From NCBI GenBank assembly GCA_013334575.1, contig JAAXXG010000003.1:12699-76698 (forward strand): 64,000 nt of DNA, read 5' to 3'. The notes under the pieces were generated by a model. The model was not told the DNA's origin, ran no database searches, and worked only from the letters and a program-made list of their open reading frames with translations. The DNA is from Candidatus Moraniibacteriota bacterium. GTDB taxonomy: Bacteria > Patescibacteriota > Minisyncoccia > Moranbacterales > UBA1568. Positions 24,812 through 41,741 of the stretch are shown one piece after another (position 1 is the stretch's first letter; each line of letters begins with the position of its first letter). The position numbers were made by a program, and so were the translations under genes.

Positions 24812-24903
24812 GGAGAGATGGCCGAGCGGCTGAAGTCCCTTCATACCGCTTGAGCGGAATGAAGTGCTAACGCGGCATGGGGTAACACCCATCGAGGGTT
24901 CGT
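24812..24903 (+). pseudogene. Degenerate partial copy of tRNA-Ser carrying a 30-nt hairpin insertion and lacking the 3' acceptor
   Basis: It shares GGAGAGATGGCCGAGCGGCTGAAG and GCTAACG.GGCATGGGGTAACACCCATCGAGGGTTCG with the true tRNA-Ser. The insert CCTTCATACCGCTTGAGCGGAATGAAG replaces the anticodon stem. Confidence 0.5.
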
Positions 24904-24981
24904 CCGGCACATGCCGGACGCCCGGCGAATGTCCGGGCGAATCTGTCGGTTATTCTGGTTCAGGGGAATTTTGAAAATAAT

Positions 24982-25068
24982 GGAGAGATGGCCGAGCGGC
25001 TGAAGGCACCACACTGCTAACGTGGCATGGGGTAACACCCATCGAGGGTTCGAATCCCTCTCTCTCCG
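24982..25068 (+). tRNA. tRNA-Ser (anticodon GCT)
   Basis: It is a long-variable-arm class II tRNA with anticodon loop CTGCTAA. Confidence 0.85.
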
Positions 25069-25079
25069 CACAGCGGGAC

Positions 25080-25110
25080 AAGCGACTCATGAAGGGTCGC
25101 TTTTCCTTTT
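25080..25110 (+). terminator. Terminator hairpin AAGCGAC-tcatgaagg-GTCGCTT followed by a T-rich tract
   Basis: It lies immediately 3' of tRNA-Ser. A near-copy of the tRNA 3' flank plus this hairpin recurs at about 30250-30330. Confidence 0.5.
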
Positions 25111-25160: not shown

Positions 25161-25223
25161 CTTGCTTTTCCGGCCCGGAGGGGTATGGTGGAGGTGTTGG
25201 TGTCTATAAAAAGGTACCTGACC
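25161..25223 (+). repeat. M1 promoter/leader repeat, copy 1
   Basis: CTTGC(C)TTTTCGGCCCGGAGGGGTATGGTGGAGGTGTTGGTGTCTATAAAAAGGTACCTGACC reads as TTGCCT-N17-TATGGT plus a conserved leader. It is upstream of the 25302 gene. Confidence 0.6.
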
Positions 25224-25301
25224 ACTTTTCTGCTATGACTGGAAGGCCTCGGTTATCGTGGTGTTTTCCGCAAAGTCGTCCTGTTTGCCGAGCAGTCGTT
25301 T

Positions 25302-27068
25302 TTGAAAGGTGTTATAGTATGGATGTCGAATGAGGAGGGGAATAACCCGACGCATATGAAAGAAAATCCGATGTCGGTTCCTAGTGACGCCGAAAGTCAG
25401 GCGAAGAATGTCCCTCTGTTCATCCGGGAATTTTCGCGCTCCGATTCGAAAGAGGAACGCGATGTCCTTGCGGCATCGATCCGCGAAAGTCGACGGAAGC
25501 GCGATGAGTGGCAGGCGGAACACGACGGGCGTTCCGTGGAGCGGGAGCGGCTCGCGGCTGAGCTGGACGGTCTTCGCAACGAGATAGCGGCGTACGAGAA
25601 CGGGGGACTCGTGACGAAGGTGAAAGATTTTCTCGCGTATCGTTCCGTGAAAGCGGAGCTGAAGGAGAAGCTGGGCGTACTCGATAAAAGCGACGATGCG
25701 ATTGCCGATGCGGAAGAGATAAAGCCTGATTTCGAGGAAACTCGGCGGCTTTTGGATGCGTTTTATACGGACGAGAAGGAGAAATGGGAGAAGGCCGGAT
25801 ATACGCCGGAGGATATCGCAAAACAGTTCACCGAGGAGCGTCTTTCCTCGTTGTCCGTCGAGGACTATGCGCTTCTGATGAGACGCTTCCCGGGCGAGAT
25901 GCTCACGCACGTGACGCGGCAGGGGATTCGCGATCATGCAGGGACTATCTGGCATACGGCTGGAGAAGGAAAATACCATAAAGGTTTCGAGTCCATGCTT
26001 GAAGATGGAAGGCTCCGTTCGAGTCTCGGAATCGCGCTCAAGGAACGTTCCAAGGAAGAAGCCGTATCGAGATTTCTTCGACTCGATAAGGTCAATTCAC
26101 GGGAGGATGCGCTTACTATGTTGGCGAAGAAATTCGAATCCAACGTGATTACGGACAACGGATTCGCCGATACCTCGGCCGTCCATTTCGCCGCGGAGAC
26201 GGTCATGGACGAGATGTACGGCTCCGAGAAAGGAAACGAGATTTTCGTGGCGTTTCCGGCGGCGTATGTCGCTTCGCAGTTGCGATTCGGCGGTCACGGG
26301 AGGTTGACCGAAGGCCATGGCGGTGTGTGGAACGACAAGTGGGTCTATACGAAGGATCATGAAGGTATGCCGCTTGATGCTGGAATAGTATTCATTCCGG
26401 AAGACGCGATGGTCAGTCCGAAAACGGGGTCCCGTTACGAGATCGGGGATGAGGGAGAGCCTTCCGTCCGGACACGTCACATCGACGAGATTCTCGATGC
26501 CCGATTCGGGAAAAACGGATTCATTCAGAAATTCGTACAGGATCTTTCACCCCGGCTTGCGAAGCTTCCGCTTCAGGAACGGCTGTCGCTCGCGCAGGGC
26601 GCGTTCAAGGAGTTCGGCATCACCGATGCGGATGCGCAAAAGGCGTTGGTGGATCTCGATGTGCTCGAAAAGTTCGCCGATGCCTGGGGAAGCGATGGGG
26701 AGCGGGACGAATACGGGAAGATCTTGGGAAAATACTACGGGAAATGCGGAGCGGATCGGTACGAGGTGGCGAAGGAGCCGATTTCTTCCAAGGAATATTG
26801 GGAGCAGTATTTCCAGCAGCATCCCGAGCGACGGCTGTCGAAGGTGGTCTACTATCGCGGAGGCGACCCCTCACACGCACTGAACCGTTGGCGGGAAGGG
26901 GCGGGAATACGGAAAGATTCGGACGATTGGAATCTTGGGTTTTCGGATCATTATGTCGGGGAAAATGCACCCGAGGCAAATGAAGGGAAAGAGCGCCTGC
27001 TGTCCCTCGCGCATAAACTCATAGACGAGCGATTTCCGGCAACGGAGATGGCTACTGAAGAAGCCTAG
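25302..27068 (+). CDS. Hypothetical protein (588 aa, soluble, no recognised domain)
   Basis: This long ORF has coding-like codon usage and sits downstream of an M1 element. Confidence 0.5.
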   Translation: MKGVIVWMSNEEGNNPTHMKENPMSVPSDAESQAKNVPLFIREFSRSDSKEERDVLAASIRESRRKRDEWQAEHDGRSVERERLAAELDGLRNEIAAYENGGLVTKVKDFLAYRSVKAELKEKLGVLDKSDDAIADAEEIKPDFEETRRLLDAFYTDEKEKWEKAGYTPEDIAKQFTEERLSSLSVEDYALLMRRFPGEMLTHVTRQGIRDHAGTIWHTAGEGKYHKGFESMLEDGRLRSSLGIALKERSKEEAVSRFLRLDKVNSREDALTMLAKKFESNVITDNGFADTSAVHFAAETVMDEMYGSEKGNEIFVAFPAAYVASQLRFGGHGRLTEGHGGVWNDKWVYTKDHEGMPLDAGIVFIPEDAMVSPKTGSRYEIGDEGEPSVRTRHIDEILDARFGKNGFIQKFVQDLSPRLAKLPLQERLSLAQGAFKEFGITDADAQKALVDLDVLEKFADAWGSDGERDEYGKILGKYYGKCGADRYEVAKEPISSKEYWEQYFQQHPERRLSKVVYYRGGDPSHALNRWREGAGIRKDSDDWNLGFSDHYVGENAPEANEGKERLLSLAHKLIDERFPATEMATEEA

Positions 27069-27110
27069 CGAGCGTTTTCGGAAGTCTGGAATGGGGTGTA
27101 GGATTTCGAC

Positions 27111-27250
27111 GTGCCTTTTCTCTTTTCATGCCAAATCACTTATAAACAGAGAGAAAGGCTTTTGAGAGTCTTTCTTTTTTCGACAAAGTCGTATTTTCAC
27201 GGTTACGGAAGGGAATTTCTTCCGGTTTACGGGAGGAATTCTCTATCCTG
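27111..27250 (+). repeat. M0 repeat (~140 bp), copy 1, immediately upstream of an M1 element
   Basis: It is about 85% identical to 31787-31941. Confidence 0.6.
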
Positions 27251-27320
27251 CCCGATTCTTGCCTTTTCAGCCCGGAGGGGTATGGTGGATATGTCAGTGT
27301 CCCATAAAAAAGGAACCTGA
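27251..27320 (+). repeat. M1 promoter/leader repeat, copy 2 (leader variant B: GGATATGTCAGTGTCCCATAAAAAAGGAACCTGA)
   Basis: It shares sequence with the other M1 copies. Confidence 0.6.
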
Positions 27321-27322
27321 TT

Positions 27323-27476
27323 TGCTCTGTAGAAATCATCTCTGCATCTCAGGCTTTCCGAGCTGTCATCCCGGGCTCGACCCGGGATCCAAGACATAGA
27401 TTCCGGCTCTTGCCCGGCGTATGCCCGGGTGGAGGCCGGAATGACCATCCTAGGACGGCTCTTTTCTGCAGCGCAT
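27323..27476 (-). repeat. M2 MITE-like structured element, inverted orientation
   Basis: It is the reverse complement of the 32012-32165 core (GTCATCCCGGGCTCGACCCGGGATCC...CCGGAATGAC). It is bounded by CTGTAGAAA/TTTCTGCAG-type termini. Confidence 0.6.
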
Positions 27477-27683
27477 GTCTGATTCCTTTTCGTTTATGCC
27501 GTTTCCGTTTCGACGGAAACGGATTAAAATCGCACGTATTTCCAGCGCTTCATTGAGATTGTTCGAAGCGGAGTATGCGACATGGCCTGAGAATGCGTGG
27601 AGGTAGGACATGATAACTGCTAAAATGAAATCAAAGGAAAACAAGAGCATTCGGAATACGTTATAGTACCTGAAAGGCAACAT

Positions 27684-28397
27684 ATGAAAACGATCATGCA
27701 AAACCGATCCTTTTTGTCCGGAATCCGTTTCGCGGCTTTCGCGTCCGCCGTTTTGACGTTCACGCCGACGCCGTTTTCCAGTCACGCATCCGCAGCAACC
27801 ACATGCTCTCCAACGGTTACGGTCACGGATACCGGGAAAACGTCCGTCAAACTCAAGGTCGCCTGTAGCAATCTCGTCAGTACGAAAGTAAGCGTGCGGT
27901 TATTGGCTACCAATGAGGAAACCGGCAAGGATTCGAAAAAAACGGTTACGGCGAAGCTTGGAAAAAAAGGGACGGTGACCATTAAACTCTCGGGACTCGA
28001 TTCGGCCACGGGCTATTCCTTCAAGGCGAAAGTGAAAAAGAACGGAGGTGCGTACGGGGCCTATTCCGATGTGGTCGAGGCGACGACCGAAGGGGCTGAT
28101 TACGATGTATCGATCGAAAAGATTAGCAGCATTACCGAGAGCTCCGCGAAACTCCGCATCACCTGCGAAGATCTCGAAGATGAGGATGTGACGCTGATGG
28201 TCGCGTACAAGAAAAAGACGTCCTGGTCGACGAAGACGTATACGCTGACTTTGGACGGCGACGGCGAAGGGGTGGTCACGGTCGACGGACTCAAGTCGGA
28301 TACGGCATACAGTTTCAAGACGAGGATCAAGAAGGACGATGATTCGATTTATTCCCGGTATTCGGAAGAGAAGTCGGCGACGACCGACGAAGATTGA
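27684..28397 (+). CDS. Secreted protein with two fibronectin-type-III-like repeats
   Basis: It has a signal peptide. Two ~90-aa repeats end GLDSATGYSFKAKVKK and GLKSDTAYSFKTRIKK. Confidence 0.55.
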   Translation: MKTIMQNRSFLSGIRFAAFASAVLTFTPTPFSSHASAATTCSPTVTVTDTGKTSVKLKVACSNLVSTKVSVRLLATNEETGKDSKKTVTAKLGKKGTVTIKLSGLDSATGYSFKAKVKKNGGAYGAYSDVVEATTEGADYDVSIEKISSITESSAKLRITCEDLEDEDVTLMVAYKKKTSWSTKTYTLTLDGDGEGVVTVDGLKSDTAYSFKTRIKKDDDSIYSRYSEEKSATTDED

Positions 28398-28419
28398 GGT
28401 ACTCATTGAACGAACACAT

Positions 28420-28770
28420 ATGACCGCTTCGCCTAGAGGGCTCTCGTTCGCCGCCGCAGGCATCGTCATGACGGCACTCATTATCGGCGGATGGTATGTC
28501 GTATTCAGAGATACCGATACGGTGAAAACCGGCTCGGTCGGCAAGGAGCGGGTTTCGGAAACGACTTCGCAGACGACTCCCTCAGCCGCTGTTTCCTCCG
28601 GGTCGGAACCGCAGGAGAAGGAGCTTCCGGCGAAAAGTACCGGCGTGCTCGTCGGTGCGTCGGCAATCCGGGATGAGTCCGACGATTCCGCCGCCCGAAA
28701 AACACAGGAGGATGATGAGGCCGATACCGATGACGGTATCTCCGTCGATGTGGAGACCGAGGAGGAATAA
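28420..28770 (+). CDS. Single-pass membrane protein with Ser/Thr-rich and acidic C-terminal tail (hypothetical)
   Basis: It starts MTASPRGLSFAAAGIVMTALIIGGWYVVF. An upstream GTG/ATG at 28339 is an alternative start. Confidence 0.4.
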   Translation: MTASPRGLSFAAAGIVMTALIIGGWYVVFRDTDTVKTGSVGKERVSETTSQTTPSAAVSSGSEPQEKELPAKSTGVLVGASAIRDESDDSAARKTQEDDEADTDDGISVDVETEEE

Positions 28771-28972
28771 CGGATTAGAATATTTCGTGGTTCCTACCGA
28801 TGATACCGAGCCTCTTTTTCTCGGGATAAGAAGGGGTCGGTATCGTTTATGAATGGCGGGTCCGGAGAGGGTGTCAGAAGCTTTTTTCTTGTCGCCGAGA
28901 GGCGATAGCACCGACGCGCCTGCCTGGCAACGGGTCAGGCGTTTTTCGATAAAACCCCTAAATTCCCGAAAA

Positions 28973-29038
28973 TCCTTGCCTTTTCGCCCAGGAAGGGTAT
29001 GGTGGAGGTGTTGGTGTCTAAAAAAGGTACCTGTCCAC
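28973..29038 (+). repeat. M1 promoter/leader repeat, copy 3
   Basis: It reads TCCTTGCCTTTTCGCCCAGGAAGGGTATGGTGGAGGTGTTGGTGTCTAAAAAAGGTACCTGTCC. Confidence 0.6.
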
Positions 29039-29167
29039 TTTTCTGTTTTGACCCCTTTTCTGTTTCGCAGGGGAATCCCTCTTTCTGCGAAAAACTCATA
29101 AGGGAGAGACTCGTGGTCTTCATGGAATGAGCAATCTAAATTGCCCGATTTGCATTTGGCATAAAGT

Positions 29168-30190
29168 ATGGAAAAATTCACCCGATTAACTCCGGAAAAT
29201 AAAACCTCAGGTATTGATAGGATACTGGGATTAGATCCTGAAGACGAGGTCGATATAAAAAAATATTTTTCGGAACTTTGTAAAAGAGAAAGCTTGGAAG
29301 TGTTTGCAAAAGAACCAAGTTTGGAGTTTAAAGAAATTTTTCCTAGCATAAATTCTTGTTTGCGAGAATTCCTTGAAGGATATGGAATAAGGCCTTTGGA
29401 TGTTTCATTATCTCAAATAGTATTTTTGGACAAGGAAAAACTTTCAGAAGGGCAGAGGTTATATTTTGAAAAAAGAAAAACAAACGCCTTTTATCATTCA
29501 AGATCGCAGAAAATCGTTCTTTTTAAGGATTGGAACGGGAATTCCAAACTAGCCGTTCTTCATGCGCTGGTGCATGAAATGGTTCATATGCAAGCTTTTG
29601 AAGCTTGGCAAAAAATTCCCAGGGAGCAAGAAGATGAAAGGGATTTCATTGTAAGTAAAGGTGATAGAAGTATACGTCTCGATCTCAGGAGATTAGGATT
29701 CAGGATGGTAGATAAAGATAGAGAAATTACGTATTTTCATGATTTAGATGAGGCGATTACCACGGAATTAACGATGCGTTTTGACTGGCAATATCTCGAA
29801 AGATTCCCCGAATTATCGGAGGAAATCAAAGAAAGAAGAGGTGTCATATTGGCGTACGCAAAAAGAAATAACTCTTCATTTGAACAAGAGAGAAGACATG
29901 TCGCGGAAATCGAGCATGAGCAATTGGAAAATGGAATAAAAAAAGTTAAGATAAATGGATATTCTTACGATCAAGAGCGAGAAAAATTCTTGATGCTGCT
30001 TGATGGGATATATAAAAATAGCTCGGAACGATTCGCCTCACCTGAAAATGTTTTCAAAGAATTTGCAACAGCGGCATTGACTGGAAATGTTTTGACAATC
30101 GCTCGCGTTATTGAGGGCGTGTATGGAAAGGGGTCTTTTCGCTATCTAGGCGAGAAAACGGCCGATAAAAGAAGCTCCGATACTGAATAG
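29168..30190 (+). CDS. Putative zinc metallopeptidase (HExxH), low-GC gene
   Basis: It has the motif AVLHALVHEMVHM (HEMVH). The gene is markedly AT-rich compared with its flanks. Confidence 0.4.
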   Translation: MEKFTRLTPENKTSGIDRILGLDPEDEVDIKKYFSELCKRESLEVFAKEPSLEFKEIFPSINSCLREFLEGYGIRPLDVSLSQIVFLDKEKLSEGQRLYFEKRKTNAFYHSRSQKIVLFKDWNGNSKLAVLHALVHEMVHMQAFEAWQKIPREQEDERDFIVSKGDRSIRLDLRRLGFRMVDKDREITYFHDLDEAITTELTMRFDWQYLERFPELSEEIKERRGVILAYAKRNNSSFEQERRHVAEIEHEQLENGIKKVKINGYSYDQEREKFLMLLDGIYKNSSERFASPENVFKEFATAALTGNVLTIARVIEGVYGKGSFRYLGEKTADKRSSDTE

Positions 30191-30567
30191 GTGGCCTATT
30201 CTCTTGAAATCATAAGATTGGATAGGCTCTTGAAAAAACTTTACAATGCGCAATATATTCGGGTTCCAGACCGAGGTAGTCCGCGCAGCGGGACAAGCGA
30301 CTCCGAGAGGGCCGCTTTTCCTCGCGGCGTTTCCGGCGGTTCGAAGGTGTCATTTCCGGCACAGAGGGACGAGCGATTCGCAGAGGGCTGTTTTTTCTTG
30401 CCGTTACGACATCGGCAGGCATCGTCGCCTGGAACCGGTTTTCCGGTTCCGGGAACGGGGTCTACAGTTGATATTTTCTCCGGGACGTGTTTTGCTGGAT
30501 CCGAGTCCTTTTTCGACAGTCCTTTCCAACTGTTTCCTGAAAACGGGAGACGCAGACAGAACGAATC

Positions 30568-30726
30568 ATGAATCAGAAGAAAACCGTATTCGCTTCCCTG
30601 GCGATCGTCGCCGTCGGGGTTTCCGGGTATTTCGCCGTCCGGGCGATCAGGCAGGCGATCGATATGGCGGGCGAGATGATCGCCTCGATTCCGTTCGCCT
30701 ATTCCTATGGCAGAAAGGAGGGGTAA
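30568..30726 (+). CDS. Small membrane protein (52 aa)
   Basis: MNQKKTVFASLAIVAVGVSGYFAV is a TM helix. A strong terminator follows at 30746-30780. Confidence 0.4.
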   Translation: MNQKKTVFASLAIVAVGVSGYFAVRAIRQAIDMAGEMIASIPFAYSYGRKEG

Positions 30727-30745
30727 GCTTCGGTCCCATGAAAAA

Positions 30746-30780
30746 ACGAGTGCACCCTCCGGCACTCGTTTTCTTTTTTT
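30746..30780 (+). terminator. Rho-independent terminator ACGAGTGC-accctccg-GCACTCGT followed by T9
   Basis: An 8-bp stem followed by a long T-run. Confidence 0.65.
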
Positions 30781-30854
30781 TGACGGAGGATCGGAAAAGG
30801 GCGTCGTATCCGAACAAGAGGGGACTGAACGGGACAAGTGTCTCCGGGATTCCT

Positions 30855-30926
30855 CCCGATTCTTGCTTTTCCGGCCCGGAGGGGTATGGTGGATATGTCA
30901 GTGTCCCATAAAAAAGGAACCTGACC
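30855..30926 (+). repeat. M1 promoter/leader repeat, copy 4 (variant B)
   Basis: It reads CCCGATTCTTGCTTTTCCGGCCCGGAGGGGTATGGTGGATATGTCAGTGTCCCATAAAAAAGGAACCTGACC. Confidence 0.6.
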
Positions 30927-31000
30927 TTTTTCTGCTCGTTCTTTTGTAAACCGACAGTCTTCGTAAGTGCGGAGATGGTGATCAATCCAAGGGAGGGAAG

Positions 31001-31765
31001 ATGAAAAACTGGGTTCTTGCGCCGCGACCATTCAACGGTTTCATGGTGTCTGTTACGGTCCTGCTCGGTTTTCATCTGACAGGACGGGATTGGAAGGAAG
31101 GATTTCCCTATTCAATAGTGGCGGCCATCCTGTATTCGGCTATCATCGTGTGGAACGATTACTGCGACCGCGAGATGGATCCTGCGAAGGGCAAACGATT
31201 CGCGAATGAACAGGGTGTCAGGTATCTTTCGTATGCCATTGTCTGGTGGGCGGTCTCACTCGCTTCCGTCGCGTGGCTCTGGATCGTACTCGGGTCGGGC
31301 CCCGGAATGCTCGCACTTGGTCTCGGGGTGTCCGGGTTTGGCTATACGTGGGCTCAGCGAAACGCGTTCGCGAAAAACGGACTGGTCGCGGTATGGACGG
31401 GGGCGGTAATGTTGTTTCCTGTGGTTTCCGGTGCGGACGTGATGCCGAAATCCCTGTGGCTGGTGGCTGTCCTGACACTTGCGAACTATGGCCGCGAAAT
31501 ACTGAAGGACGCTGAGGATGTTCATTGCGACACGGACAAGGACACCTTGGCGACGCGGTACGGTTCGTCGGTTTCTGCAATCGTCGCCTTGTTCCCGCTC
31601 GTGCTTGCGGCTGTCACGGCCGCAGTTGGCTTCGGGACAGCTGGTATCGTATATATCGTCTCATTTCTTGTCGCCGGGCTTCTCGGAGTGTGTGGACGGT
31701 ATCGTGAGTCCGTGACGTTTCTGAAGTACGGGTTGGCAATATCCGTTCCTGTCCTGTTCTTGTAA
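31001..31765 (+). CDS. UbiA-family aromatic/polyprenyl prenyltransferase
   Basis: It is eight-TM and carries the Asp-rich NDYCDREMD (NDxxDxxxD) motif. Confidence 0.65.
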   Translation: MKNWVLAPRPFNGFMVSVTVLLGFHLTGRDWKEGFPYSIVAAILYSAIIVWNDYCDREMDPAKGKRFANEQGVRYLSYAIVWWAVSLASVAWLWIVLGSGPGMLALGLGVSGFGYTWAQRNAFAKNGLVAVWTGAVMLFPVVSGADVMPKSLWLVAVLTLANYGREILKDAEDVHCDTDKDTLATRYGSSVSAIVALFPLVLAAVTAAVGFGTAGIVYIVSFLVAGLLGVCGRYRESVTFLKYGLAISVPVLFL

Positions 31766-31786
31766 TCATGAGGAGTCAGAAGAGGC

Positions 31787-31941
31787 ATGTCGAAAATCCG
31801 GCGTGCCTTTTCTCTTTTCATACCAAATCACTTTTTAGACGGAAAGAAAGACTTTCAAGAGCCTTTCTTTTTCGACGAGATCAGATTTTCGCGGTTACGG
31901 AAGGGAATTTTTCCGGTTTACGGGAGGAATCCTCTATCCTG
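31787..31941 (+). repeat. M0 repeat, copy 2
   Basis: It is a paralog of 27111-27250. Confidence 0.6.
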
Positions 31942-32011
31942 CCCGATTCTTGCCTTTTCGGCCCGGAGGGGTATGGTGGGGGTGTTGGTGTCTATAAAAA
32001 GGTACCTGACC
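31942..32011 (+). repeat. M1 promoter/leader repeat, copy 5
   Basis: It shares sequence with the other M1 copies. Confidence 0.6.
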
Positions 32012-32165
32012 TGCTCTGTAGAAAAGATCTTTGTAGGATTGTCATTCCGGCCTCCACCCGGGCATTCGCCGGGCAAGAGCCGGAATCTATGCCTTGGATC
32101 CCGGGTTTGACCCGGGATGACAGTACGGAAAATCTGAAACGCGGAGATGATTTCTACAGAGCATA
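32012..32165 (+). repeat. M2 MITE-like structured element, direct orientation
   Basis: Its termini are the inverted repeats CTGTAGAAA...TTTCTACAG. Internally it has two strong hairpins (ATTCCGGC...GCCGGAAT and ATCCCGGGtttgaCCCGGGAT). It is flanked by ACCTGACC on both sides. Confidence 0.6.
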
Positions 32166-32276
32166 CCTGACCCCTTTTCTGTTTTTGCGAGTCTTTCTTT
32201 TTCGACGAAACAGATTTTCGATATACAATGGAGGTATGAAGGAGGAGGATAAGCGAAATGGAAAGGATATTTCGAT

Positions 32277-33290
32277 ATGAGAGAAATTCCACGGTCTACG
32301 GAAAATAGGGAAGACCCGGTTTCTCCCTCGGAATCGTTCCTGAGGGAGTTCGTGTACGGAAACAGCGGCCTAAGCGAGTCCTCGAAAGCGTTTCTCGCGG
32401 AAAGGGTTGCCGTCGAAAAGCGTGGTCCATGGTCGGAAGCGGATTTTGTCCGGCGGGTCTACGAAAGCGGTGATCGGATAGTCGTCGAATTTCGGGATGG
32501 AGAAGCATATCTGTATCCTCCCTTGGGTATCAAGGCGGATGCTGACGATAATGCCGTAAGGGAAAAACGTTCCATGGAGCGGGACCTGAGGCCGATAGCC
32601 ACCACCGATTTTCAAAGGAAAATGACGGAAGTCGGTTTTGACGCTTCGGTTGTTGGGGAACTACTGAAACTCGTGCCGAGCTTGGGTCTGCGTGAAAACT
32701 CGGAAGCTCTGTTTCTTGGGCCTTCGAAGATGCCCCTTCAGTTTCTGGTCGCGAACGCGTGCGGTTCCGTAGAGGTTCTTGAGAAAAACGGCGAGCGTCG
32801 GGATTGGATTCGTGGTATGGCTGAATCGCTCGGAATTTCCGAAAAAATGAGGATCCGCGAACATGGAGAGGCAGAAATAGGCGCTGCTCGATTCGTGGAG
32901 GATTCGTATGATCTTATCGTCGCACTCAGCATACTCGATCTGGTCGGCGAGAGTCCCGAAGTCTACCGCCGTATGCTCAGGGCGGTGAGAGATGGAGGAA
33001 AGATAATAATCGGGCATCACGAGATGCTGTTCGGGGATCGGGAAAAATTGCTTCTCGAGCGGTATGCGGCAGACCTCAGGTACTCGGTTTTGGATCTCGG
33101 TATTTCGATCGATGACGGTCATGAACCGGGTGACCCATACTATAACCGGGAATCGTACCTGCTTCAGGTACTAAAACGAAAAGAGCGGAATGATACACCT
33201 TCGGGCGGGCGCCCCCGTGACCTTGTCGAGACATTACGTTTGTTTGCGGCGTTGGAAAGTCTGGGAGATGCCCGATCGCGGAAGGAATGA
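32277..33290 (+). CDS. Hypothetical protein (337 aa); weak class-I methyltransferase-like segment
   Basis: This long ORF has coding-like codon usage. YDLIVALSILDLVGESPEVYRRMLRAVRDGGKIIIG resembles the MTase motif III/IV region. Confidence 0.35.
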   Translation: MREIPRSTENREDPVSPSESFLREFVYGNSGLSESSKAFLAERVAVEKRGPWSEADFVRRVYESGDRIVVEFRDGEAYLYPPLGIKADADDNAVREKRSMERDLRPIATTDFQRKMTEVGFDASVVGELLKLVPSLGLRENSEALFLGPSKMPLQFLVANACGSVEVLEKNGERRDWIRGMAESLGISEKMRIREHGEAEIGAARFVEDSYDLIVALSILDLVGESPEVYRRMLRAVRDGGKIIIGHHEMLFGDREKLLLERYAADLRYSVLDLGISIDDGHEPGDPYYNRESYLLQVLKRKERNDTPSGGRPRDLVETLRLFAALESLGDARSRKE

Positions 33291-33349
33291 CATATTTTCG
33301 GAAAACGGCGGTATTCTTCGGAGAAAACGGACGGCGTATCGTTCCCTAG

Positions 33350-34228
33350 TCAATACCTTTGCATCACTTCTTCGGGTGTCTGGTACCCGATTCCCATATG
33401 AATCCGTTCCCCGTTGTAATACGGGAGGTATTTTGAAATTGCGTTTCTGAGCTTTGAAACGGAGCGTGGAACAAAGTCCAGGCACTCCTCCTGTATCGTA
33501 CGGTTGAACCGTTCCACATGCGCCTGATCGTTCGAGCGACGTTCCCTCGAGTGCCGGTGCGATATCCCGATTCGTTTCATCGCGTGCGTGAACCCGGTCG
33601 TGAACTCGGGTCCGTTGTCTGACTGGACCAACCGTATCTCAAACGGGGCCGATTCCCGGACCCGCCTCATGAACTCGACACTCTTTTTCGCCCCGATACG
33701 ATCCGTCGCCCAGGCAAAGCTCCACCTCGAGCAGAGATCAATCGCCGTATACACATAGACCCGTTCTCCCCTGGAAGACTGGAGGTGTATCGTATCGATT
33801 TCCACGAATGCTCCCGGATATGCGGCTTCCGGACGTCTCGTGTGGTCATGGGGTCGTTTCCAGGGAGAACGCTTCTTTGTCAGATGGCACCGGTCCAAGG
33901 TCCGCTGTACGGATGAGAGGGAAACCTTCATTCCGGCAGTCGTCAATTCATGATGGACCACCTGTCCGCACCGGTCATGTTCCAATCGTTTGTCGATGAT
34001 CGCCGAGACGATGTCTCGTGACAACGCTTTCGGATGATAGTGCGGCTTCGAAGACAGGGTCGGTATCGGTCCGACGTTCCGATGTTCCGCCTGCTTGGCC
34101 CACCGGATGATGGTGGACTGGTCATATCCGAAATATCTCGCCACTTCCCGGGAACTCTTTCCCGATCTGAGCATCTTCACCGCATCCCAGCGTACCTTCG
34201 GGATATTCGGGTTCGAGGAATATGCCAT
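33350..34228 (-). CDS. IS481-family DDE transposase (HTH plus rve integrase core)
   Basis: It has an N-terminal HTH (SSREVARYFGYDQSTIIRW) and an rve core with the D, D, E triad context (VEIDTIHL, YTAIDLCSRW, DNGPEF...HAMKRIGISHR). Confidence 0.75.
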   Translation of the reverse strand: MAYSSNPNIPKVRWDAVKMLRSGKSSREVARYFGYDQSTIIRWAKQAEHRNVGPIPTLSSKPHYHPKALSRDIVSAIIDKRLEHDRCGQVVHHELTTAGMKVSLSSVQRTLDRCHLTKKRSPWKRPHDHTRRPEAAYPGAFVEIDTIHLQSSRGERVYVYTAIDLCSRWSFAWATDRIGAKKSVEFMRRVRESAPFEIRLVQSDNGPEFTTGFTHAMKRIGISHRHSRERRSNDQAHVERFNRTIQEECLDFVPRSVSKLRNAISKYLPYYNGERIHMGIGYQTPEEVMQRY

Positions 34229-34277
34229 ATCTTTGCATGAGACGGGTCAGTCTAGCAGGTGATGCAAAGGTATTGAA
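33350..34277 (-). mobile_element. IS481-family insertion sequence (~0.93 kb) with 17-18-bp terminal inverted repeats (T)CAATACCTTTGCATCAC
   Basis: The left IR at 33350-33367 is the reverse complement of the right IR at 34259-34276. It encodes a single DDE transposase. Confidence 0.7.
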
Positions 34278-34282
34278 ACATT

Positions 34283-34311
34283 ACGAGGTCTTGACAAAAA
34301 AGACTATTTAA
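34283..34311 (+). promoter_or_regulatory. Sigma70-like promoter TTGACA-N17-TAATGT directly outside the IS right end
   Basis: A consensus -35 and a good -10 face the downstream 34460 gene. A structured leader follows. Confidence 0.5.
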
Positions 34312-34459
34312 GGTAATGTCTGTAACAGAATCTTTACATGGCTTTTCATCGATGGCCCATCCTATGCGAGTATTCGTCTCCGATGGGCCATCGACGAAAA
34401 CAATACTTCTGTCGCCCATGATGGCTGGTCGACGAAATTAGCTGAGAAAGGAGCTAATC

Positions 34460-35170
34460 ATGTATACGGAAAACTGTAATTTTAAGGTGGAGCTGCTCGT
34501 TCACGGGCGGCCTATAACGGAATACCTCCTCGGTGGTGACACGTTCGTCGAGGGACGGATGGGGTCGGAGTATGAGATCCGTATCACGAACTACAGCAGC
34601 AGAAATGCGGTCGCGGTCGTCAGCGTCGACGGTCTTTCCGTCATGAACGGCAAGCCCGCTTCCAGGGACGCTTCGGGGTACGTCCTCGAGCCGTTCGGGA
34701 ATGTCATCATTCCCGGCTGGCGTCTCAATAACGAAGGCGTCGCTCATTTCAAGTTCGGCGCGCTGCCGGAATCCTATGCCGAAAAGCAGGGAATGCCGGA
34801 GAATGTCGGGGCCATCGGCGTCGTCTTCTTCTTCGAGCGCAAGGCTCCGGAATTTCTGCCGAACTTCGATCTGCGGACAAAGGGGATTCGACCGCCGGTC
34901 ATGTACTCGGCGGCTCCGGGGTCGTACAGCGCGTCCATCGGTACCGAATTCGGCAGGCGGACCGAACACCGTGTCACGAATGTCAATTTCGACCGTGAGC
35001 CGTCTCCGGCGGCGGAGCTTGTGCTCCGCTACGACGAGGCGAGCAATCTCGAGTCGCGTGGCATCAGGCTGATCGGTTCGCATGTCGGCAGGGATGCGGT
35101 CCGTGAGGCGAGTCCGTTTCCCGCCGATATCGGCTGCGTCCCTCCCAGGGGATGGCACAGGAGAAAGTAA
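34460..35170 (+). CDS. Hypothetical protein (236 aa)
   Basis: A GGAG ribosome-binding site precedes the ATG. No recognised domain. Confidence 0.45.
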   Translation: MYTENCNFKVELLVHGRPITEYLLGGDTFVEGRMGSEYEIRITNYSSRNAVAVVSVDGLSVMNGKPASRDASGYVLEPFGNVIIPGWRLNNEGVAHFKFGALPESYAEKQGMPENVGAIGVVFFFERKAPEFLPNFDLRTKGIRPPVMYSAAPGSYSASIGTEFGRRTEHRVTNVNFDREPSPAAELVLRYDEASNLESRGIRLIGSHVGRDAVREASPFPADIGCVPPRGWHRRK

Positions 35171-35245
35171 GGCGATCGAATATTGAAATATCGAAGAGCT
35201 CGCAATGCGGGCTCTTTAATTTTACCCGGTACGAAAAAAGCCGGA

Positions 35246-35304
35246 TACCTTTTCAGCTCGGAAGGGTATTATGGGGGTGTAGGCGTCTAAAAAAATACCT
35301 GACC
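35246..35304 (+). repeat. M1-like degenerate repeat, copy 6a
   Basis: It reads ATACCTTTTCAGCTCGGAAGGGTATTATGGGGGTGTAGGCGTCTAAAAAAATACCTGACC. Confidence 0.45.
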
Positions 35305-35322
35305 TCTTTTCCGCTCCCCGAC

Positions 35323-35386
35323 TCCTTGCCTTTTCGGCCCGGAGGGGTATGGTGGAGGTGACGGTCTTTGCAAAAGGAATCCAGCC
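35323..35386 (+). repeat. M1 promoter/leader repeat, copy 6b
   Basis: It reads CTCCTTGCCTTTTCGGCCCGGAGGGGTATGGTGGAGGTGACGG... Confidence 0.55.
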
Positions 35387-35461
35387 TCTCTTTTTTGGTT
35401 GCGGGTGCTGAGTATGCCGCGTCGATATTTTGACGGAGTCGCACTTCCTGGAAATATCCGT

Positions 35462-36112
35462 ATGAAACTATATCTTTCATCATACAAACTTGGGAACGAT
35501 ATCGAGGCCCTGAAAGGGCTTGTCCCCGCCGGGAACAGGAAGACGGCATTCATCCCGAACGCTCTCGATTTTTCCACTGATTCCGAACGGCGGGAGAAGA
35601 GCGAACGATCCGATGTCGAGGATTTGTCCGCGTTGGGTCTCGAGGTGGAACGATTGGATCTGAGGGACTATTTCGGCCTGCAGTCGGAACTGGAAACGAA
35701 GCTCGGTGATTTCGGCGTCATCTGGGTACGCGGCGGAAACGCGTTCGTACTTCGGAAGGCGATGAAGAAAAGCGGTTTCGATGAAATACTCCGGCGTTTC
35801 GTGGGGAAGAAGGAATTATTGTACGGGGGATATAGCGCGGGAATCTGCGTGTTGTCACCAACGTTGGAAGGGATAGACCTTGTCGACGATCCTTATGTAG
35901 ACCCGTACGGAGACCCTTCCGCGGCGTCGTTCGAAGGCCTCGGAATCGTTGACTATTCCATAGTCCCTCATTATCGGTCCGATCATCCGGAATCGGCGAG
36001 TATCGAAAAGGTCGTCGAATATCTTGAAGAAAAAGGGATCCGATATAGGACGCTCCGGGACGGGGACGTGATAATCTCGGAGGTTTCGGAGGAGTCCGCT
36101 GTGCGGGTCTGA
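35462..36112 (+). CDS. Peptidase S51 (dipeptidase E/cyanophycinase-like), paralog 1
   Basis: It has the VRGGNAFVL motif and the nucleophile context YGGYSAGICV. An upstream in-frame ATG at 35399 is an alternative start. Confidence 0.65.
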   Translation: MKLYLSSYKLGNDIEALKGLVPAGNRKTAFIPNALDFSTDSERREKSERSDVEDLSALGLEVERLDLRDYFGLQSELETKLGDFGVIWVRGGNAFVLRKAMKKSGFDEILRRFVGKKELLYGGYSAGICVLSPTLEGIDLVDDPYVDPYGDPSAASFEGLGIVDYSIVPHYRSDHPESASIEKVVEYLEEKGIRYRTLRDGDVIISEVSEESAVRV

Positions 36113-36191
36113 ATGATGGTCGGGTGCGTCTGAGCGAGGAATCCGATTTAGGAGGTGGGGAATCGTGGAGAAGCATGCCGAGAGCTGAACT

Positions 36192-37058
36192 ATGGAATAT
36201 TCGGACCTGGTACGCGACGTATTTTCGGATGGGGAGAAAAAGCGGTTCATAACCGACAGTCTTCGCGACTCGATGACCCGTCTCGGGTTCTCTGGCGCTC
36301 TGCGCGACGAATTCCTGCGAAACATCGATACGCTTACCGTTGCCGATTTTATCGGGCGACATAAAAACGAGCTCCAGCGGGTTCAGAACGAACATTTTTT
36401 CGGGGAGTTGGTGCCGGTATATTTCAAAGAGAACGTGGTTCCCGAAATACCGGCCGGGGGCAAGGTGCTTGATCTGGGATGCGGTCCCGCCATCCTGATC
36501 CGCTGTCTCATCGAACGGGGAACGAACCCGGAAATCGTCGGTTCGGATATCGCGGCCGACCCGCGCTGGAGCGGCATCGTTCCCGAAGATGCGCGGCTCG
36601 AAGTGGTACGGGAGTCCGAATTTCTTCCATATCTGAAACGGGAGCAGCCGGACCATGTCGCGGCGACGTGGGTATTCCATCACATGGAATACGCGGAGCA
36701 GGAACGATACCTGTCCGCGCTTCACAACGCCCTCAAGCCGGGGGCGACGCTTGTCGTGTTGGAAGACTCGTATTCGGAGGTCCTCCTGCCCGAGTCCGGC
36801 AGAGAGCGAGCCCTGGCGTTCATGCGGTGGAGCCCCGAGGACCGGCACAAAATCATGGGAGCGCTCGACTGGATTGCCAACCGGATTTTCAGCATGCGGA
36901 CCTCGATGCCGGTGCCGTTCGCGTATAGGACCCTGGAAGGCTGGGCAAAAGTTTTCGAGGAAGCCGGATTTTCGGTGAAAAAGACCAGATTCCTGGGATT
37001 TCCAGACAACAGGGATATACATACTCCCCAGAGCCTGATCGTCGCCGAGAAGCGATAG
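36192..37058 (+). CDS. Class I SAM-dependent methyltransferase
   Basis: Motif I is VLDLGCGPA. Post-I is VGSDIA. Motif II/III is LVVLED. Confidence 0.65.
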   Translation: MEYSDLVRDVFSDGEKKRFITDSLRDSMTRLGFSGALRDEFLRNIDTLTVADFIGRHKNELQRVQNEHFFGELVPVYFKENVVPEIPAGGKVLDLGCGPAILIRCLIERGTNPEIVGSDIAADPRWSGIVPEDARLEVVRESEFLPYLKREQPDHVAATWVFHHMEYAEQERYLSALHNALKPGATLVVLEDSYSEVLLPESGRERALAFMRWSPEDRHKIMGALDWIANRIFSMRTSMPVPFAYRTLEGWAKVFEEAGFSVKKTRFLGFPDNRDIHTPQSLIVAEKR

Positions 37059-37258
37059 CACGACGCGCCTGCCCGGCAACGGACCGGGCGTTGTATTTTT
37101 AGTATCCTTGTTATTTTTTCCTAGAGGGGATATCGTAAAAAGGAAGTAACATTAGGTGGTAATACAGCTGCAAGAAACCGTTTCGGGCCGAAAAATCAAA
37201 AGAAAATTGATCTGCTTGTCATGTACGAGCATTTGTTTGTAGTCCAATAAATATAGAA

Positions 37259-38317
37259 TTGCAAAAATATATGGCAAAAAAAAATAAAAAAATAGAAGTC
37301 GTCGATCTTTTTAGTGGAGTAGGTGGTTTAACATACGGCTTAAGAAAGTCAGGATTGTCAGTTTTGGCTGGCATTGATAACGACCAATCATGTGCATATG
37401 CATATGAGAAAAATAATAAGGCAAGGTTTTTATCTGTTGATATATCGAAGTTTGATTTTAAAGAATTGAATAAAATTTATTCGAGGAACAGTGTTCGAGT
37501 ACTTGTTGGGTGCGCTCCGTGTCAACCCTTTTCTTCTCATGCTTATAAATTACGTAAAGACGAAAGTGACGTGCGCTGGAACTTGCTCAGTCATTTTATT
37601 AGAGGAATAAAAGTCGTCAAACCGGATATTGTTTCAATGGAGAATGTTCGAGGAGTTACGAAAACTGATGTATTTAAGAACTTCGTGAGTGAACTTGAAA
37701 AACTTGGTTATAAAGTTGATTGGAAAGTTGTATATGCACCAAATTATGGTGTGCCACAAAATCGAAGCCGCCTTATTTTGCTTGCTTCAAGACTTGGTGA
37801 AATTTCTATACCAAAAGAAACTCATACAAAAGACAATTATGTTACTGTTGGCGATGTCATTCGTGAGTTGCCAAGGATTGAAGCAGGGGAAGCATCAAAG
37901 CAGGATAAATTACATCAAGCAAAGAAGCTGGAACTTATAAATGAAAGGCGTATTTTGCAATCGAAGCCTGGTGGCACTTGGCGCGATTGGGATAAGAGTT
38001 TATTGCCGAATTGCTATAAAAAAGATAGTGGACAAACGTACACATCGGTATATGGACGTATGAAGTGGGAGGACGTATCGCCGACGATTACCACGCAATT
38101 CACAAGTTACGGATCCGGGCGATTTGGACATCCTGAACAGAATCGAGCGCTTTCAATTCGTGAGGGTGCGCTTTTGCAAACATTTCCCATTGATTATGAC
38201 TTTGGAGATTTTCCGGCTGCAAAATTGAGTCGACATATTGGTAATGCAGTGCCTCCTCAGTTGGGTGTTGTAATTGGAAGGCAAATAAAGAAACACATTG
38301 AAATCTATGGAAAGTGA
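37259..38317 (+). CDS. DNA (cytosine-5)-methyltransferase (Dcm type), AT-rich gene
   Basis: Motif I is VVDLFSGVGG. Motif IV is GCAPCQPFS. Motif VI is ENV. Motif VIII is QNRSRLIL. Motif X is GNAVPP. Confidence 0.9.
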   Translation: MQKYMAKKNKKIEVVDLFSGVGGLTYGLRKSGLSVLAGIDNDQSCAYAYEKNNKARFLSVDISKFDFKELNKIYSRNSVRVLVGCAPCQPFSSHAYKLRKDESDVRWNLLSHFIRGIKVVKPDIVSMENVRGVTKTDVFKNFVSELEKLGYKVDWKVVYAPNYGVPQNRSRLILLASRLGEISIPKETHTKDNYVTVGDVIRELPRIEAGEASKQDKLHQAKKLELINERRILQSKPGGTWRDWDKSLLPNCYKKDSGQTYTSVYGRMKWEDVSPTITTQFTSYGSGRFGHPEQNRALSIREGALLQTFPIDYDFGDFPAAKLSRHIGNAVPPQLGVVIGRQIKKHIEIYGK

Positions 38318-39953
38318 AAAGTATACATTTAATATATCCCTGAGCGTTTTAAATCATCTTGGCAGAAATTTATATCGCAGCTTTGTTACGATACTTGGTG
38401 AGGGTATTTCTAATGCTTGGGACGCTGACGCGGACAGCGTTTATATTTACTACGATTCCGAAAATCAAACCTTATGCATCATGGACGATGGTGCTGGTAT
38501 GAGTTCTGAGGATTTTCAGGGTAAATTTCTACGTGTAGGCTATACAAAACGAAAAGGTTGTGGCCTAACAAGCCCTGGAGGGCGTCATTTTATTGGGCGT
38601 AAAGGGATTGGAAAGCTAGCACTTCTGTCTGCCGCTCAAACTGTAACAGTCATAACTAAGACCAAAGATGGCGAGTTTGTTTGTGGTGTTATTGATAACG
38701 GCGGATTGGACGAGGCTATTGATGAGGACACACAACAGGCTGATTATCCACTAGGTACGGTTGATCCTATCGCTTTTCTAGAGGAAAAGAATATAAGGAT
38801 TAACAAATCAGGTACCGTCGTTTGGTTTGATGGGTTGAAAGAAAAAGCAAGCCATAGTTTTGATTTTATAAAAAAATCTCTTGCTCTTTACTTTAGATTT
38901 TCATTGCAGGACTCAAATTTCAAAATATATTTTAATAATGAATTGGTCACGGTGAAAGAATTGCAAGGACTTTGTGATAGAACTCAGTTTTTATGGCAAC
39001 TCAACGATTCATTCTCTGATGATTTTATAAATCAAATGAGTCCAAAAAGAACTGATGTAATACTTGATGATCAAAAAATAACGGGGTTTATTGCATCTGT
39101 TAATGAGCCTAGAGACAGAAACATATTTGGCTCAGGAGAACGTGTTGGTATTGATGTGTTTGTGAACGGACGCATTAGAGAAGTTGATATACTAAAACAC
39201 TTTCCTCGATCACGTATCCCCGAGCAATATTTATATGGACAAGTTCATCTAAACGATTTCGACAATGACGAAGTTGACCGGTTTACAAGCAGTCGTGAAG
39301 GAATACATGTTGATGATCCTGATTTTAAAATAATTCGTGAAAAACTTGGCGAAGTAGTTAATTCCATTATTAAACAATGGGATGTTTGGCGGCTTGAATT
39401 GAGAGAAGAGGGAGATAGCGATAACGAGGAAAATCTTAAAAAAGAGCAACGATATTCAAGAAATTTATATAACCAAGTGGCCTCAAAATATGTGCCAGCG
39501 TCTGAACAAGCCGATACGGTCAGACAATGGGAACATGAGCTGGAGAAAGACGCCGAATTAAATCTTCGTTCGTATGCAGAATGCTTCATCTCTGAAAATT
39601 TGGTTAGAAGGTATTGGCAAGAGAAAGAAATTAATCCAGACCAAAACTCATCGCAAGAAGTAAGTCATTGGAGAAACTGTGAGACAAGAGACAAAAATCA
39701 GGCAAATATATCAATAGATATACGTCTTGATAACGATGACAAATACTACATTGGAATGGAGAACTTAGCGCGACAAGCAGAGGCTCCGGGAGCTGCTGGT
39801 TCTGGTAACGCTAGTTTGCCACATGATGCAAAGGCTTTTGCGCCGTTGAGAAATGCAGTTATGCACACTTCTTTACTCACAGATCAAGCAAAAAGTAGAT
39901 TAACTACAGTCCTGGATAATATAAGAGGGCGGATTAAAACTTTGCTTCAATAA
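38298..39953 (+). CDS. MORC/HATPase_c_3-type GHKL ATPase (551 aa) with C-terminal Rx4H HEPN-like motif
   Basis: The N-box reads EGISNAWDADA, G1 reads IMDDGAGMS and G2 reads GRKGIGKLA. The C-terminus has LRNAVMH (Rx4H). Its start overlaps the dcm 3' end by 20 nt. The gene is AT-rich. Confidence 0.6.
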   Translation: MKSMESEKYTFNISLSVLNHLGRNLYRSFVTILGEGISNAWDADADSVYIYYDSENQTLCIMDDGAGMSSEDFQGKFLRVGYTKRKGCGLTSPGGRHFIGRKGIGKLALLSAAQTVTVITKTKDGEFVCGVIDNGGLDEAIDEDTQQADYPLGTVDPIAFLEEKNIRINKSGTVVWFDGLKEKASHSFDFIKKSLALYFRFSLQDSNFKIYFNNELVTVKELQGLCDRTQFLWQLNDSFSDDFINQMSPKRTDVILDDQKITGFIASVNEPRDRNIFGSGERVGIDVFVNGRIREVDILKHFPRSRIPEQYLYGQVHLNDFDNDEVDRFTSSREGIHVDDPDFKIIREKLGEVVNSIIKQWDVWRLELREEGDSDNEENLKKEQRYSRNLYNQVASKYVPASEQADTVRQWEHELEKDAELNLRSYAECFISENLVRRYWQEKEINPDQNSSQEVSHWRNCETRDKNQANISIDIRLDNDDKYYIGMENLARQAEAPGAAGSGNASLPHDAKAFAPLRNAVMHTSLLTDQAKSRLTTVLDNIRGRIKTLLQ

Positions 39954-40128
39954 AGAAACTCACTCGCGTTATCAGGTCTTTGAGCGCGTGCTGTTAGGTG
40001 TTAGGGTAGGTCAGGCACAAGTAAATTAACTTGTGCGTTAGTGTAAACCGCTTTGAATGTCGGCAAGAAAATGGGTCAGTTACTCTTTCGAAGAGGATTT
40101 TTGAACCCATTGGCGGCTCGTGACCCGG

Positions 40129-40385: not shown

Positions 40386-40415
40386 CTTTTCGGGGAGGAT
40401 GTTACATGTCTCTAG
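40176..40415 (+). pseudogene. Truncated N-terminal fragment (~70 codons) of the AAA_28-type P-loop kinase
   Basis: MKRIRTIVLTGGPCGGKSTVLRALREEFGDRLVPVPEAATVLFEGGFPVPGRDIEWSEEW is identical to the 43917 gene product. Unrelated sequence and a stop follow. Confidence 0.7.
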
Positions 40416-41661: not shown

Positions 41662-41741
41662 AAACCCGTAAAAGAACGACCTGGTCCGGAAAAGGTGTCA
41701 GGTGCTTTTGACTGATGTCAGATGGCCGAGGGGCGTAAACG

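Follow-up and report, generated by a model that had tools for sequence, protein, structure and literature searches.

The propagation and reuse of promoters in prokaryotic genomes was described in 2012 by Matus-Garcia, Nijveen and van Passel under the name of putative mobile promoters (PMPs; PMC3488235; PMC3575422). In this study, we examined a family of short repeats, termed M1, that stand before unrelated genes in a 64,000-nt stretch (the window) of a Candidatus Moraniibacteriota chromosome, contig JAAXXG010000003.1, from the Candidate Phyla Radiation (CPR). We conclude that M1 is probably a clade-specific family of duplicated and propagated sigma-70-type promoter modules that also act as recombination junctions for gene cassettes, and as such is a clear further example of the phenomenon described in 2012 and not a new kind of element. 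PMPs and M1 are alike in being homologous stretches of 50-100 nt with at least 80% identity placed before non-homologous genes, many of them hypothetical, in varying in copy number between close strains, in diverging toward the start codon in the larger families, and in an origin proposed to lie in homologous or illegitimate recombination (PMC3488235). M1 differs from the PMPs of that survey in that it belongs to an uncultured CPR (Moranbacteria) lineage outside it, that seven copies are clustered in 10 kb, that its copies are the sites of recombinant junctions observed between strains, that the conserved part can be narrowed to a block from -37 to +1, and that a miniature inverted-repeat transposable element (MITE) is tied specifically to the leader.

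Two further systems invite comparison. The class I and II intergenic repeats of halovirus HF2 likewise carry promoter motifs before different genes and were tested for promoter activity by reporter fusions; HF2, however, is an archaeal virus with TATA/BRE-type promoters and a genome-wide repeat set, whereas M1 occupies a variable chromosomal region (PMC8707807). Integron arrays resemble the M1 region in that unrelated accessory genes point in one direction, are separated by repeats of ~60-90 nt and form cassettes that vary between strains. An integron, however, drives promoterless cassettes from one Pc promoter, while M1 lies 5' of each gene with its own putative promoter, and the further differences (integrase, attC structure, breakpoints) are taken up below.

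A repeat search identified seven M1 copies of 63 nt in the window, all on the plus strand, beginning at 25161, 27258, 28975, 30862, 31949, 35244 and 35325. The preliminary description of the region, made from the sequence alone, had reported at least seven copies, and its coordinates agree with ours to within 0-7 nt. R1, a covariance model built from eight M1 copies, scored the seven at 70-95 bits (E 1e-16 to 3e-23) and, decayed remnants aside, found no comparable match in the remainder of the window. The pattern TTGCYT-N16-TATGGT matched exactly six times in the window against 0.00 expected from shuffles; the N17 spacing given at first had no match, even with one mismatch tolerated, and the spacer is to be corrected to 16 nt.

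Each copy consists of a promoter block followed by a leader, of which two variants, v1 and v2, recur within the window. Copy 1 (25161-25238; v1; 94.8 bits, E 3e-23) lies upstream of g1, a 570-aa gene whose ATG is at 25356, and comprises a -35 element TTGCTT at 25162-25167, a 16-nt spacer, a -10 element TATGGT at 25184-25189 and a predicted +1 near 25196. Copy 2 (27258-27322; v2; 70 bits) precedes an FN3-domain gene at 27684; its leader is broken by the MITE after CCTGATT and picks up again at ~27485. Copy 3 (28975-29062; v1; 88.9 bits) stands before a low-GC gene for a 340-aa protein at 29168, and its 3' tail is duplicated in tandem as CCACTTTTCTGTTT followed by CCCCTTTTCTGTTT. Copy 4 (30862-30941; v2; 84.5 bits) is found upstream of a gene for a UbiA-like membrane protein at 31001, and copy 5 (31949-32011; v1; 78.5 bits) upstream of gene g5 at 32277, the leader of copy 5 being interrupted by the MITE after TACCTGACC and resuming at 32164. 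Copies 6 and 7 are arranged in tandem, copy 6 being 81 nt upstream of copy 7, start to start. Copy 6 (35244-35319; 73.2 bits) is degenerate, with the -35 lost (GATACC) and TATTAT as its -10, and copy 7 (35325-35401; 79.2 bits), with a third leader variant, precedes an S51 peptidase gene with its ATG at 35462. Identity between copies reaches 95% over 63 nt (copy 5 against copy 1) and 92% over 66 nt (copies 2 and 4, both v2), and falls below 80% across the full 63 nt for copies 6 and 7.

Conservation within the family is concentrated in the promoter half. Alignment to the model yielded 16 matches representing 15 distinct copies from four lineages, and over these the block of ~36 bp from CTTGCC to GGAGGTG (about -37 to +1) has a mean pairwise identity of 86%. 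The conserved sequence is CTTGCCTTTTCGGCCCGGAGGGGTATGGTGGAGGTG, in which we recognise a -35 element TTGCCT, a spacer, a -10 element TATGGT and a G-rich discriminator. Spacer length is 16 nt in all 15 distinct copies. The -35 reads TTGCCT or TTGCTT in 13 of them (four of six positions matching TTGACA, with TTG kept), being lost in copy 6 and weakened in L006c, a copy from a related species. Positions 1, 2, 3 and 6 of the -10 (T, A, T and T) never change in the 15 copies; variation is confined to positions 4 and 5 (TATTAT, TATTGT). In sigma-70 promoters T-12, A-11 and T-7 are the critical bases of the -10, and a TATnnT pattern of substitution is therefore what would be expected of a -10 element. 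The sigma-70-like anatomy noted earlier is thus borne out by hexamers, spacer and substitution pattern, as well as by the position of the copies after terminators and their orientation with the genes that follow. Likely promoters of similar style occur elsewhere in the window: TTGACT-17-TATCGT upstream of tRNA-Met/Asp, CTTGCT...GGTATCCT upstream of tRNA-Ile, and TTGATT-17-TAGAGT at 62801-62829.

The leader, by comparison, is the least conserved part of M1 (45% mean pairwise identity with many indels, against 86% in the promoter block), and the conserved leader of ~35 nt described initially is not upheld. Both variants reported there are confirmed: copies 1, 3 and 5 carry v1, copies 2 and 4 carry v2, and to these we add the third variant of copy 7 and the degenerate leader of copy 6. 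Relatives carry further, entirely different leaders, and in L001 and L006b the M1 block is joined to unrelated downstream sequence, with homology stopping at or just past the -10 hexamer. Both the drop in identity and the replacement of the leader in relatives indicate that the promoter half is the conserved unit. Features that recur among the leaders are an A-rich tract at ~+12 to +22, often GTACC and then CTGACC, and a pyrimidine tract, CTTTTCTG. Folding of the leader from the predicted +1, or of the whole 100 nt, gave energies no better than shuffles (z -2.0 to +0.7), and an Rfam search, run both at the gathering threshold and with E <= 1, gave no match to M1, its sole return being the tRNA-Ser. 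A leader peptide was also considered and rejected: ATG or GTG codons in M1 open short open reading frames (ORFs), but indels give v1, v2 and copy 3 different frames and stops. The same applies to a promoter or terminator on the minus strand, for which the fold is weaker (copy 1), no minus-strand genes are present to be served and no convincing hexamers are seen.

Comparison between strains and species reveals M1 reshuffled relative to genes, in keeping with the mobile promoter cassette that had been offered as one alternative in the preliminary description. We gathered relatives by exact-core scans and via homologues of the methyltransferase g8, which is encoded in the window. L010, a second strain of the window species, is 98-99.6% identical to the window (L010 1-1011 corresponds to window 28037-29045, and L010 936-11914 to window 30859-41837) and is missing the 1.8-kb cassette that separates copy 3 from copy 4 (window 29046-30858), whose GC content is 0.37 compared with ~0.54 in its neighbours. 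The single M1 at the junction in L010 joins the promoter of copy 3 to the leader of copy 4, and this chimera has its crossover in a 12-nt identical core, GGGTATGGTGGA; an identical stretch of 12 nt is too short for this junction to be an assembly collapse. Between the window and a near-identical strain, L003, 24 of ~2,850 sites differ (0.8%), and nine of these substitutions, together with two indels, fall inside the 58 nt that make up copy 2, changing v2 into a v1-like leader that is identical to no copy in the window. This pattern appears to reflect gene conversion and not an assembly chimera. A transfer-messenger RNA or tRNA end upstream of copy 1 in L003 was also considered; ARAGORN and Rfam found nothing there.

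Relatives and the window show further traces of propagation and recombination. Copy 3 is preceded by a 3'-end remnant of a g8-like methyltransferase gene with its terminator (28893-28946). In L004 (of a sister species) and L006 (the related species that carries L006b and L006c) this terminator-M1 module stands behind an intact g8; in the window the orthologous position has a diverged remnant of M1 at 37100 and the edge of a defence island. In L005, of the same sister species as L004, an M1 leader leads into what is left of the 3' part of a truncated S51 peptidase gene, and the L005 homologue of g1 has no M1 upstream.

Of 14 copy positions, 11 have an intrinsic terminator within about 30-90 nt upstream; a scan scored the terminators ahead of window copies 1, 3 and 4, and the rest were read from the sequence. 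The exceptions are copy 7, which follows copy 6, L006c, which is directly after a stop codon, and L006a, which comes after a divergently oriented gene. Every M1 copy is oriented with the next gene. Four copies are 132, 130, 76 and 74 nt from the start of that gene, in agreement with the distance of 70-130 nt upstream of a plus-strand gene first proposed, a range that does not extend to copies 2 and 5 (363 and 265 nt) or to the tandem copy 6. Copies 2 and 5 are farther from their genes because the 152-nt MITE has inserted. The predicted 5' untranslated regions (UTRs) measure 102-183 nt, or 293-391 nt with the MITE.

The six proteins encoded directly downstream are the 570-aa g1 product, the FN3-domain protein, the 340-aa protein, which has an HExxH motif (gene GC 0.37), a protein with a weak UbiA-like prenyltransferase match, the g5 product and the S51 peptidase. 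They are mutually non-homologous (best E = 0.31 in an all-against-all BLASTP of the six) and their Pfam and NCBIfam assignments differ. The genes were initially called unrelated orphans; unrelated they are, but the term orphan holds in part, since three of the six have no Pfam, NCBIfam or PADLOC family and the other three are assigned to FN3, weakly to UbiA-like prenyltransferases, and to the S51 peptidases. Methyltransferase-like matches of the g5 protein are all sub-threshold. In relatives M1 precedes an HD-domain gene, an inositol-1-phosphate synthase gene, a DHH-like gene, g8 itself and a helicase-PLD defence gene, and no common functional theme unites the genes that M1 heads.

M1 appears to be a young family limited to a narrow clade of about four lineages. 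Besides L003 and L010, it was found in L004 and L005, of one sister species (one copy each), in L006, with g8 at 89% identity and four copies in a stretch of 16 kb, and in L001, a contig binned as 'Fimivivens' that is homologous to window 30108-30356 and has two copies. R1 found no M1 in five contigs from relatives whose g8 is at most 82% identical, and its absence there and presence in closer relatives suggest that the family is young and clade-restricted. An exact-core scan of the GTDB representative genomes retrieved only four contigs, two from Moraniibacteriota, the homologous contig labelled 'Fimivivens' and a chance match in Akkermansiaceae; the same scan of JGI metagenomes retrieved one, from the same species as L004.

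We propose that the ~36-bp block is the functional unit, with transcription probably starting ~7 nt downstream of the -10. The transcript would run through a variable 5' UTR of 100-160 nt into whichever gene follows. The module has probably spread through the variable accessory region both by duplication and by recombination among its copies, including gene conversion. As the copies are direct repeats, they probably also serve as junctions at which cassettes are deleted, inserted or swapped between strains, so that a newly placed gene would inherit a working promoter. The repeat family, with its architecture, pattern of conservation, genomic position and restriction to one clade, and the recombinant junctions between strains are observed directly, whereas promoter activity, the start position and the mechanism of recombination are inferred.

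Several observations weigh against this reading. Its hexamers agree with the consensus at only 8 of 12 positions, which is under the threshold of a simple promoter scan. Certain genes also show a second promoter-like site nearer their start, for example TGTTATAGT at 25310-25318 upstream of g1, read from the sequence, and TCGACG-16-TACAAT at 32202-32229 upstream of g5; given these closer sites, M1 may not be the sole or main promoter of such genes. Nearly all genes in M1 regions are on one strand, which makes co-orientation a weak test. The spacer TTTTCGGCCCGGAGGGG is conserved as strongly as the hexamers across the four lineages, which a plain promoter does not need and which a bound regulator, homogenisation by gene conversion or a hairpin (H1) could account for. 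H1 overlies the -35 to -10 interval and is 99% pairable, though it would be relevant only in RNA transcribed from upstream. Finally, the sequences used for comparison are all metagenome-assembled.

Conservation of the spacer speaks for a promoter with a built-in operator: a single regulator would recognise the spacer, and perhaps also the A-rich GGTACC region, and the genes headed by M1 would make up a regulon with a common regulatory input. Such a reading is compatible with the promoter module and adds one claim to it. A perfect 11-bp palindrome, TCCGGCCCGGA, is present in copies 1 and 4, and AGGTACCT in leader v1 forms an 8-bp palindrome; yet neither is kept across copies (loops GCCCA, AGCTC and GGCGA; variants GGAACC and AGTACC), the downstream genes have no function in common (FN3, HExxH, prenyltransferase, peptidase, inositol-phosphate synthase, defence), and gene conversion between copies can by itself hold the spacer uniform. 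We therefore regard an operator as unlikely. Alternatively, M1 might be a cis-acting structured RNA, either a leader or attenuator or a protein-binding leader, transcribed from a start upstream of the block and made up of H1 (GCCUUUUC-loop-GGAGGGGUA), another stem-loop whose loop is A-rich, and the CUUUUCUG tract that follows. H1, which spans the -35 to the -10, is predicted in every copy and is pairable, G-U included, in 99.3% of cells over the 15 distinct copies; its variable positions lie in the 5-nt loop or are wobble-compatible, and copy 6, on losing its -35 hexamer, lengthens H1. Several copies share a stem-loop that starts at the predicted +1 and leads into a U-rich tract, and in the fold of the L004 copy GGAGGGG can pair instead with a downstream CCCCUUUUC. 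However, no pair in H1 is changed on both sides, RNAalifold and pair counts detect no covariation beyond composition, and column shuffles retain 90.6% pairing compared with 92.1% observed, so that pairing between a G-only arm and a C/U arm is compositional and not covariational. Against an RNA element, too, are the ordinary folding energies and the lack of an Rfam match reported above, the poor conservation of the leader half, which is swapped outright in relatives, and the space of only 30-80 nt between M1 and the preceding terminator, which leaves little room for another promoter and in which no conserved one is seen. A structured RNA is, on this evidence, very improbable.

The behaviour of M1 at cassette boundaries raises the question of whether it is mainly an att-like, integron-like site of site-specific recombination for circular cassettes, with the promoter incidental. 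Cassettes that differ in presence between strains end within M1, and the crossover lies in the core named above; in L001 and L005 the homology stops at one or other edge of the module; the 3' tail of copy 3 is duplicated; and the units are uniformly oriented. Unlike in an integron, no tyrosine or serine recombinase is encoded among the ~40 main window ORFs scanned, where the only candidate is the DDE (rve) transposase of an unrelated insertion sequence (IS), and neither the attC inverse core RYYYAAC nor the core GTTRRRY occurs in any of the seven copies. Nor are the breakpoints at one fixed position, being found at the -10, after the leader, or as replacement of the whole module by conversion, and the neighbouring repeat family at 40119-43976, built on a quite different repeat, shows the same cassette behaviour, which argues for general recombination. 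We give an att-like site very little chance of being correct. Transposition has similarly been suggested in the mobile-promoter literature, where large families may be mobilised by a transposase (PMC3488235), and a multi-copy intergenic element of ~80 nt in a region that contains an IS and a MITE could conceivably be a small non-autonomous element of MITE or repetitive extragenic palindromic (REP) type, with an outward promoter and copied by a transposase encoded elsewhere. M1 is not an IS end, however, and has neither terminal inverted repeats (its ends are CTTGCC... and ...CTTTTCTG) nor target-site duplications, and its edges are ragged. Copies share different extra upstream terminator modules (T_A, T_B and T_C), as segmental recombination predicts; they are clustered in 10 kb, while the other 54 kb of the window hold only decayed remnants, and a sister species has a single copy in 13 kb. 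That M1 is itself a transposable element of this type is thus highly doubtful, and a propagated promoter module remains the explanation we prefer.

Three further loci in the window, all on the plus strand, retain traces of M1. The tail reported at 53463 in the preliminary description is real and belongs to a decayed copy, directly 3' of the stop codon of ORF 52417-53418, that is broken by the MITE (53420-53655: M1 at 53420-53479, MITE at 53480-53631, leader tail at 53632-53655). A diverged, AT-enriched remnant at 37100-37150 (TTGTTA-17-TATCGT) stands directly after the g8 methyltransferase terminator, the orthologous position, and forms the left edge of the low-GC restriction-modification and defence island. 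At 42617-42692 an M1-like copy (15.6 bits, E 0.035) has lost its -10, retains the A-rich tract and the TGACACTTTTCTGC tail, and abuts the ATG of a gene at 42692. Separately, a 150-nt module of terminator and spacer precedes copies 2 and 5 (27107-27257 and 31799-31948) and two of the copies in L006 (3241-3333 and 5307-5437); its 3' part contains T-rich/G-rich hairpins like H1 and has a weak score of 11.7 bits with the M1 model. The module may derive from an ancient tandem copy of M1 that has since decayed.

The MITE of 152 nt that interrupts M1 leaders has the terminal inverted repeat TGCTCTGTAGAAA. It is found at 32012-32163 (plus strand) inside copy 5, bordered on either side by a perfect 9-bp target duplication, TACCTGACC; at 27323-27475 (minus strand) inside copy 2, inverted relative to the former and flanked by the duplication (A)CCTGATT / GTCTGATT; at 53480-53631 (plus strand) inside the decayed copy; and at 6537-6667 of L006. 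All four distinct copies occupy the same position in an M1 leader, one of them inverted, and the element was found only within M1 leaders. The MITE either targets the leader sequence or was co-duplicated with M1. IS or MITE elements can insert into REP-type intergenic repeats, and the MITE in M1 is comparable in its constant position, its occurrence in both orientations and its 9-bp duplication; it differs in that the target is a promoter leader and not a REP hairpin, and in that some copies may have been co-duplicated with M1. No parent transposase for the MITE was identified. An invertible 5'-UTR switch was entertained for the 152-nt element and rejected, as the direct duplication of 9 bp is perfect, orientation does not differ at the same locus in L003 or L010, and neither orientation provides a terminator; a MITE is the better reading.

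The content of the window (topoisomerase I, RelA/SpoT, ABC transporters and six tRNAs) is that of a bacterial chromosome. Copies 1-7 all lie at 25-35.4 kb, part of a wider variable region at 25-44 kb, just downstream of tRNA-Ser, with lower and patchy GC, which also holds an IS (rve), the MITE, a type II restriction-modification pair and a SoFic-like gene. The IS (33350-34278, minus strand) encodes one 292-aa DDE (rve) transposase between 18-bp terminal inverted repeats, TCAATACCTTTGCATCAC; it sits between two M1-headed units, and its ends are unrelated to those of the MITE. The low-GC (0.40-0.48) defence island occupies 37259-41661, between the g8 methyltransferase and an AAA_28 gene, and encodes a type II C5-cytosine methylase, a restriction enzyme of the BbrUII/HgiDII family and the SoFic-like protein. 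In L006 the same slot contains genes for a 1073-aa helicase-PLD protein and a 919-aa AAA_15/AAA_21 protein, and these different contents mark the slot as a variable hotspot.

Further along is the second repeat family, which comprises the promoter and first 40-210 nt of an AAA_28 ATPase gene. It is present four times, at 40119-40379, 41743-41837, 42506-42604 and 43863-44120, with the intact gene at 43917-44549, and behind every truncated copy a different cassette has been inserted (the SoFic-like gene, a 190-aa gene or a 367-aa gene). Of the three junctions, two immediately follow GGCCGTG and one lies 4 nt beyond it. Three TGTTACAT repeats (40380-40432) open the Fic cassette. L010 lacks window 41838-43862, that is, two of these cassettes. 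Outside the M1 array, L010 also lacks ~535 nt at 46900-47435, including the 186-aa CYTH-domain ORF (46886-47446), a strain-specific indel.

Other duplications are associated with tRNA genes. A 43-nt repeat at 25065-25107, 30280-30322 and 30356-30398 starts with the last 5 nt of tRNA-Ser and includes an intrinsic terminator (GCGAC...GTCGC TTTT); two further copies are found 5.2 kb downstream of the first, and it also occurs in the relatives L001 and L006 (13941-14007). The repeat resembles the att-type direct repeats that flank an integrated segment, and no integrase is present. A tRNA-Ser-like fragment at 24822-24905, ~80 nt upstream of the real tRNA-Ser, is not called by ARAGORN; it shares the D-arm and variable/T-arm sequence, has a 28-nt insertion and is missing both ends. 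The 3' half of tRNA-Ala, with ~20 nt downstream, is duplicated at 10584-10638 directly after the intact tRNA-Ala (82% over 55 nt), and this may be the scar of an element once integrated there.

Altogether, M1 extends known biology, namely the propagation of promoters recognised in 2012, and opens no new category. To our knowledge, there is almost no experimental information on promoters of CPR/Patescibacteria, and M1 offers a well-delimited 36-bp candidate CPR promoter with a natural series of 15 variants. It also provides a concrete, strain-resolved case of what are probably reused promoters doubling as the junctions where accessory genes enter or leave a reduced genome that has few classical mobile elements. 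A more far-reaching idea, which we put forward as speculation and think unlikely, is that M1 and the AAA_28 promoter/5'-end repeat (40119-43976) are landing pads of an integrase-free cassette exchange in this clade, in which accessory and defence genes would pass between strains through recombination at the modules and be expressed at once from a resident promoter, and a dedicated MITE would home to the M1 leader; if true, such a system would be a functional analogue of the integron built from promoters instead of attC sites.

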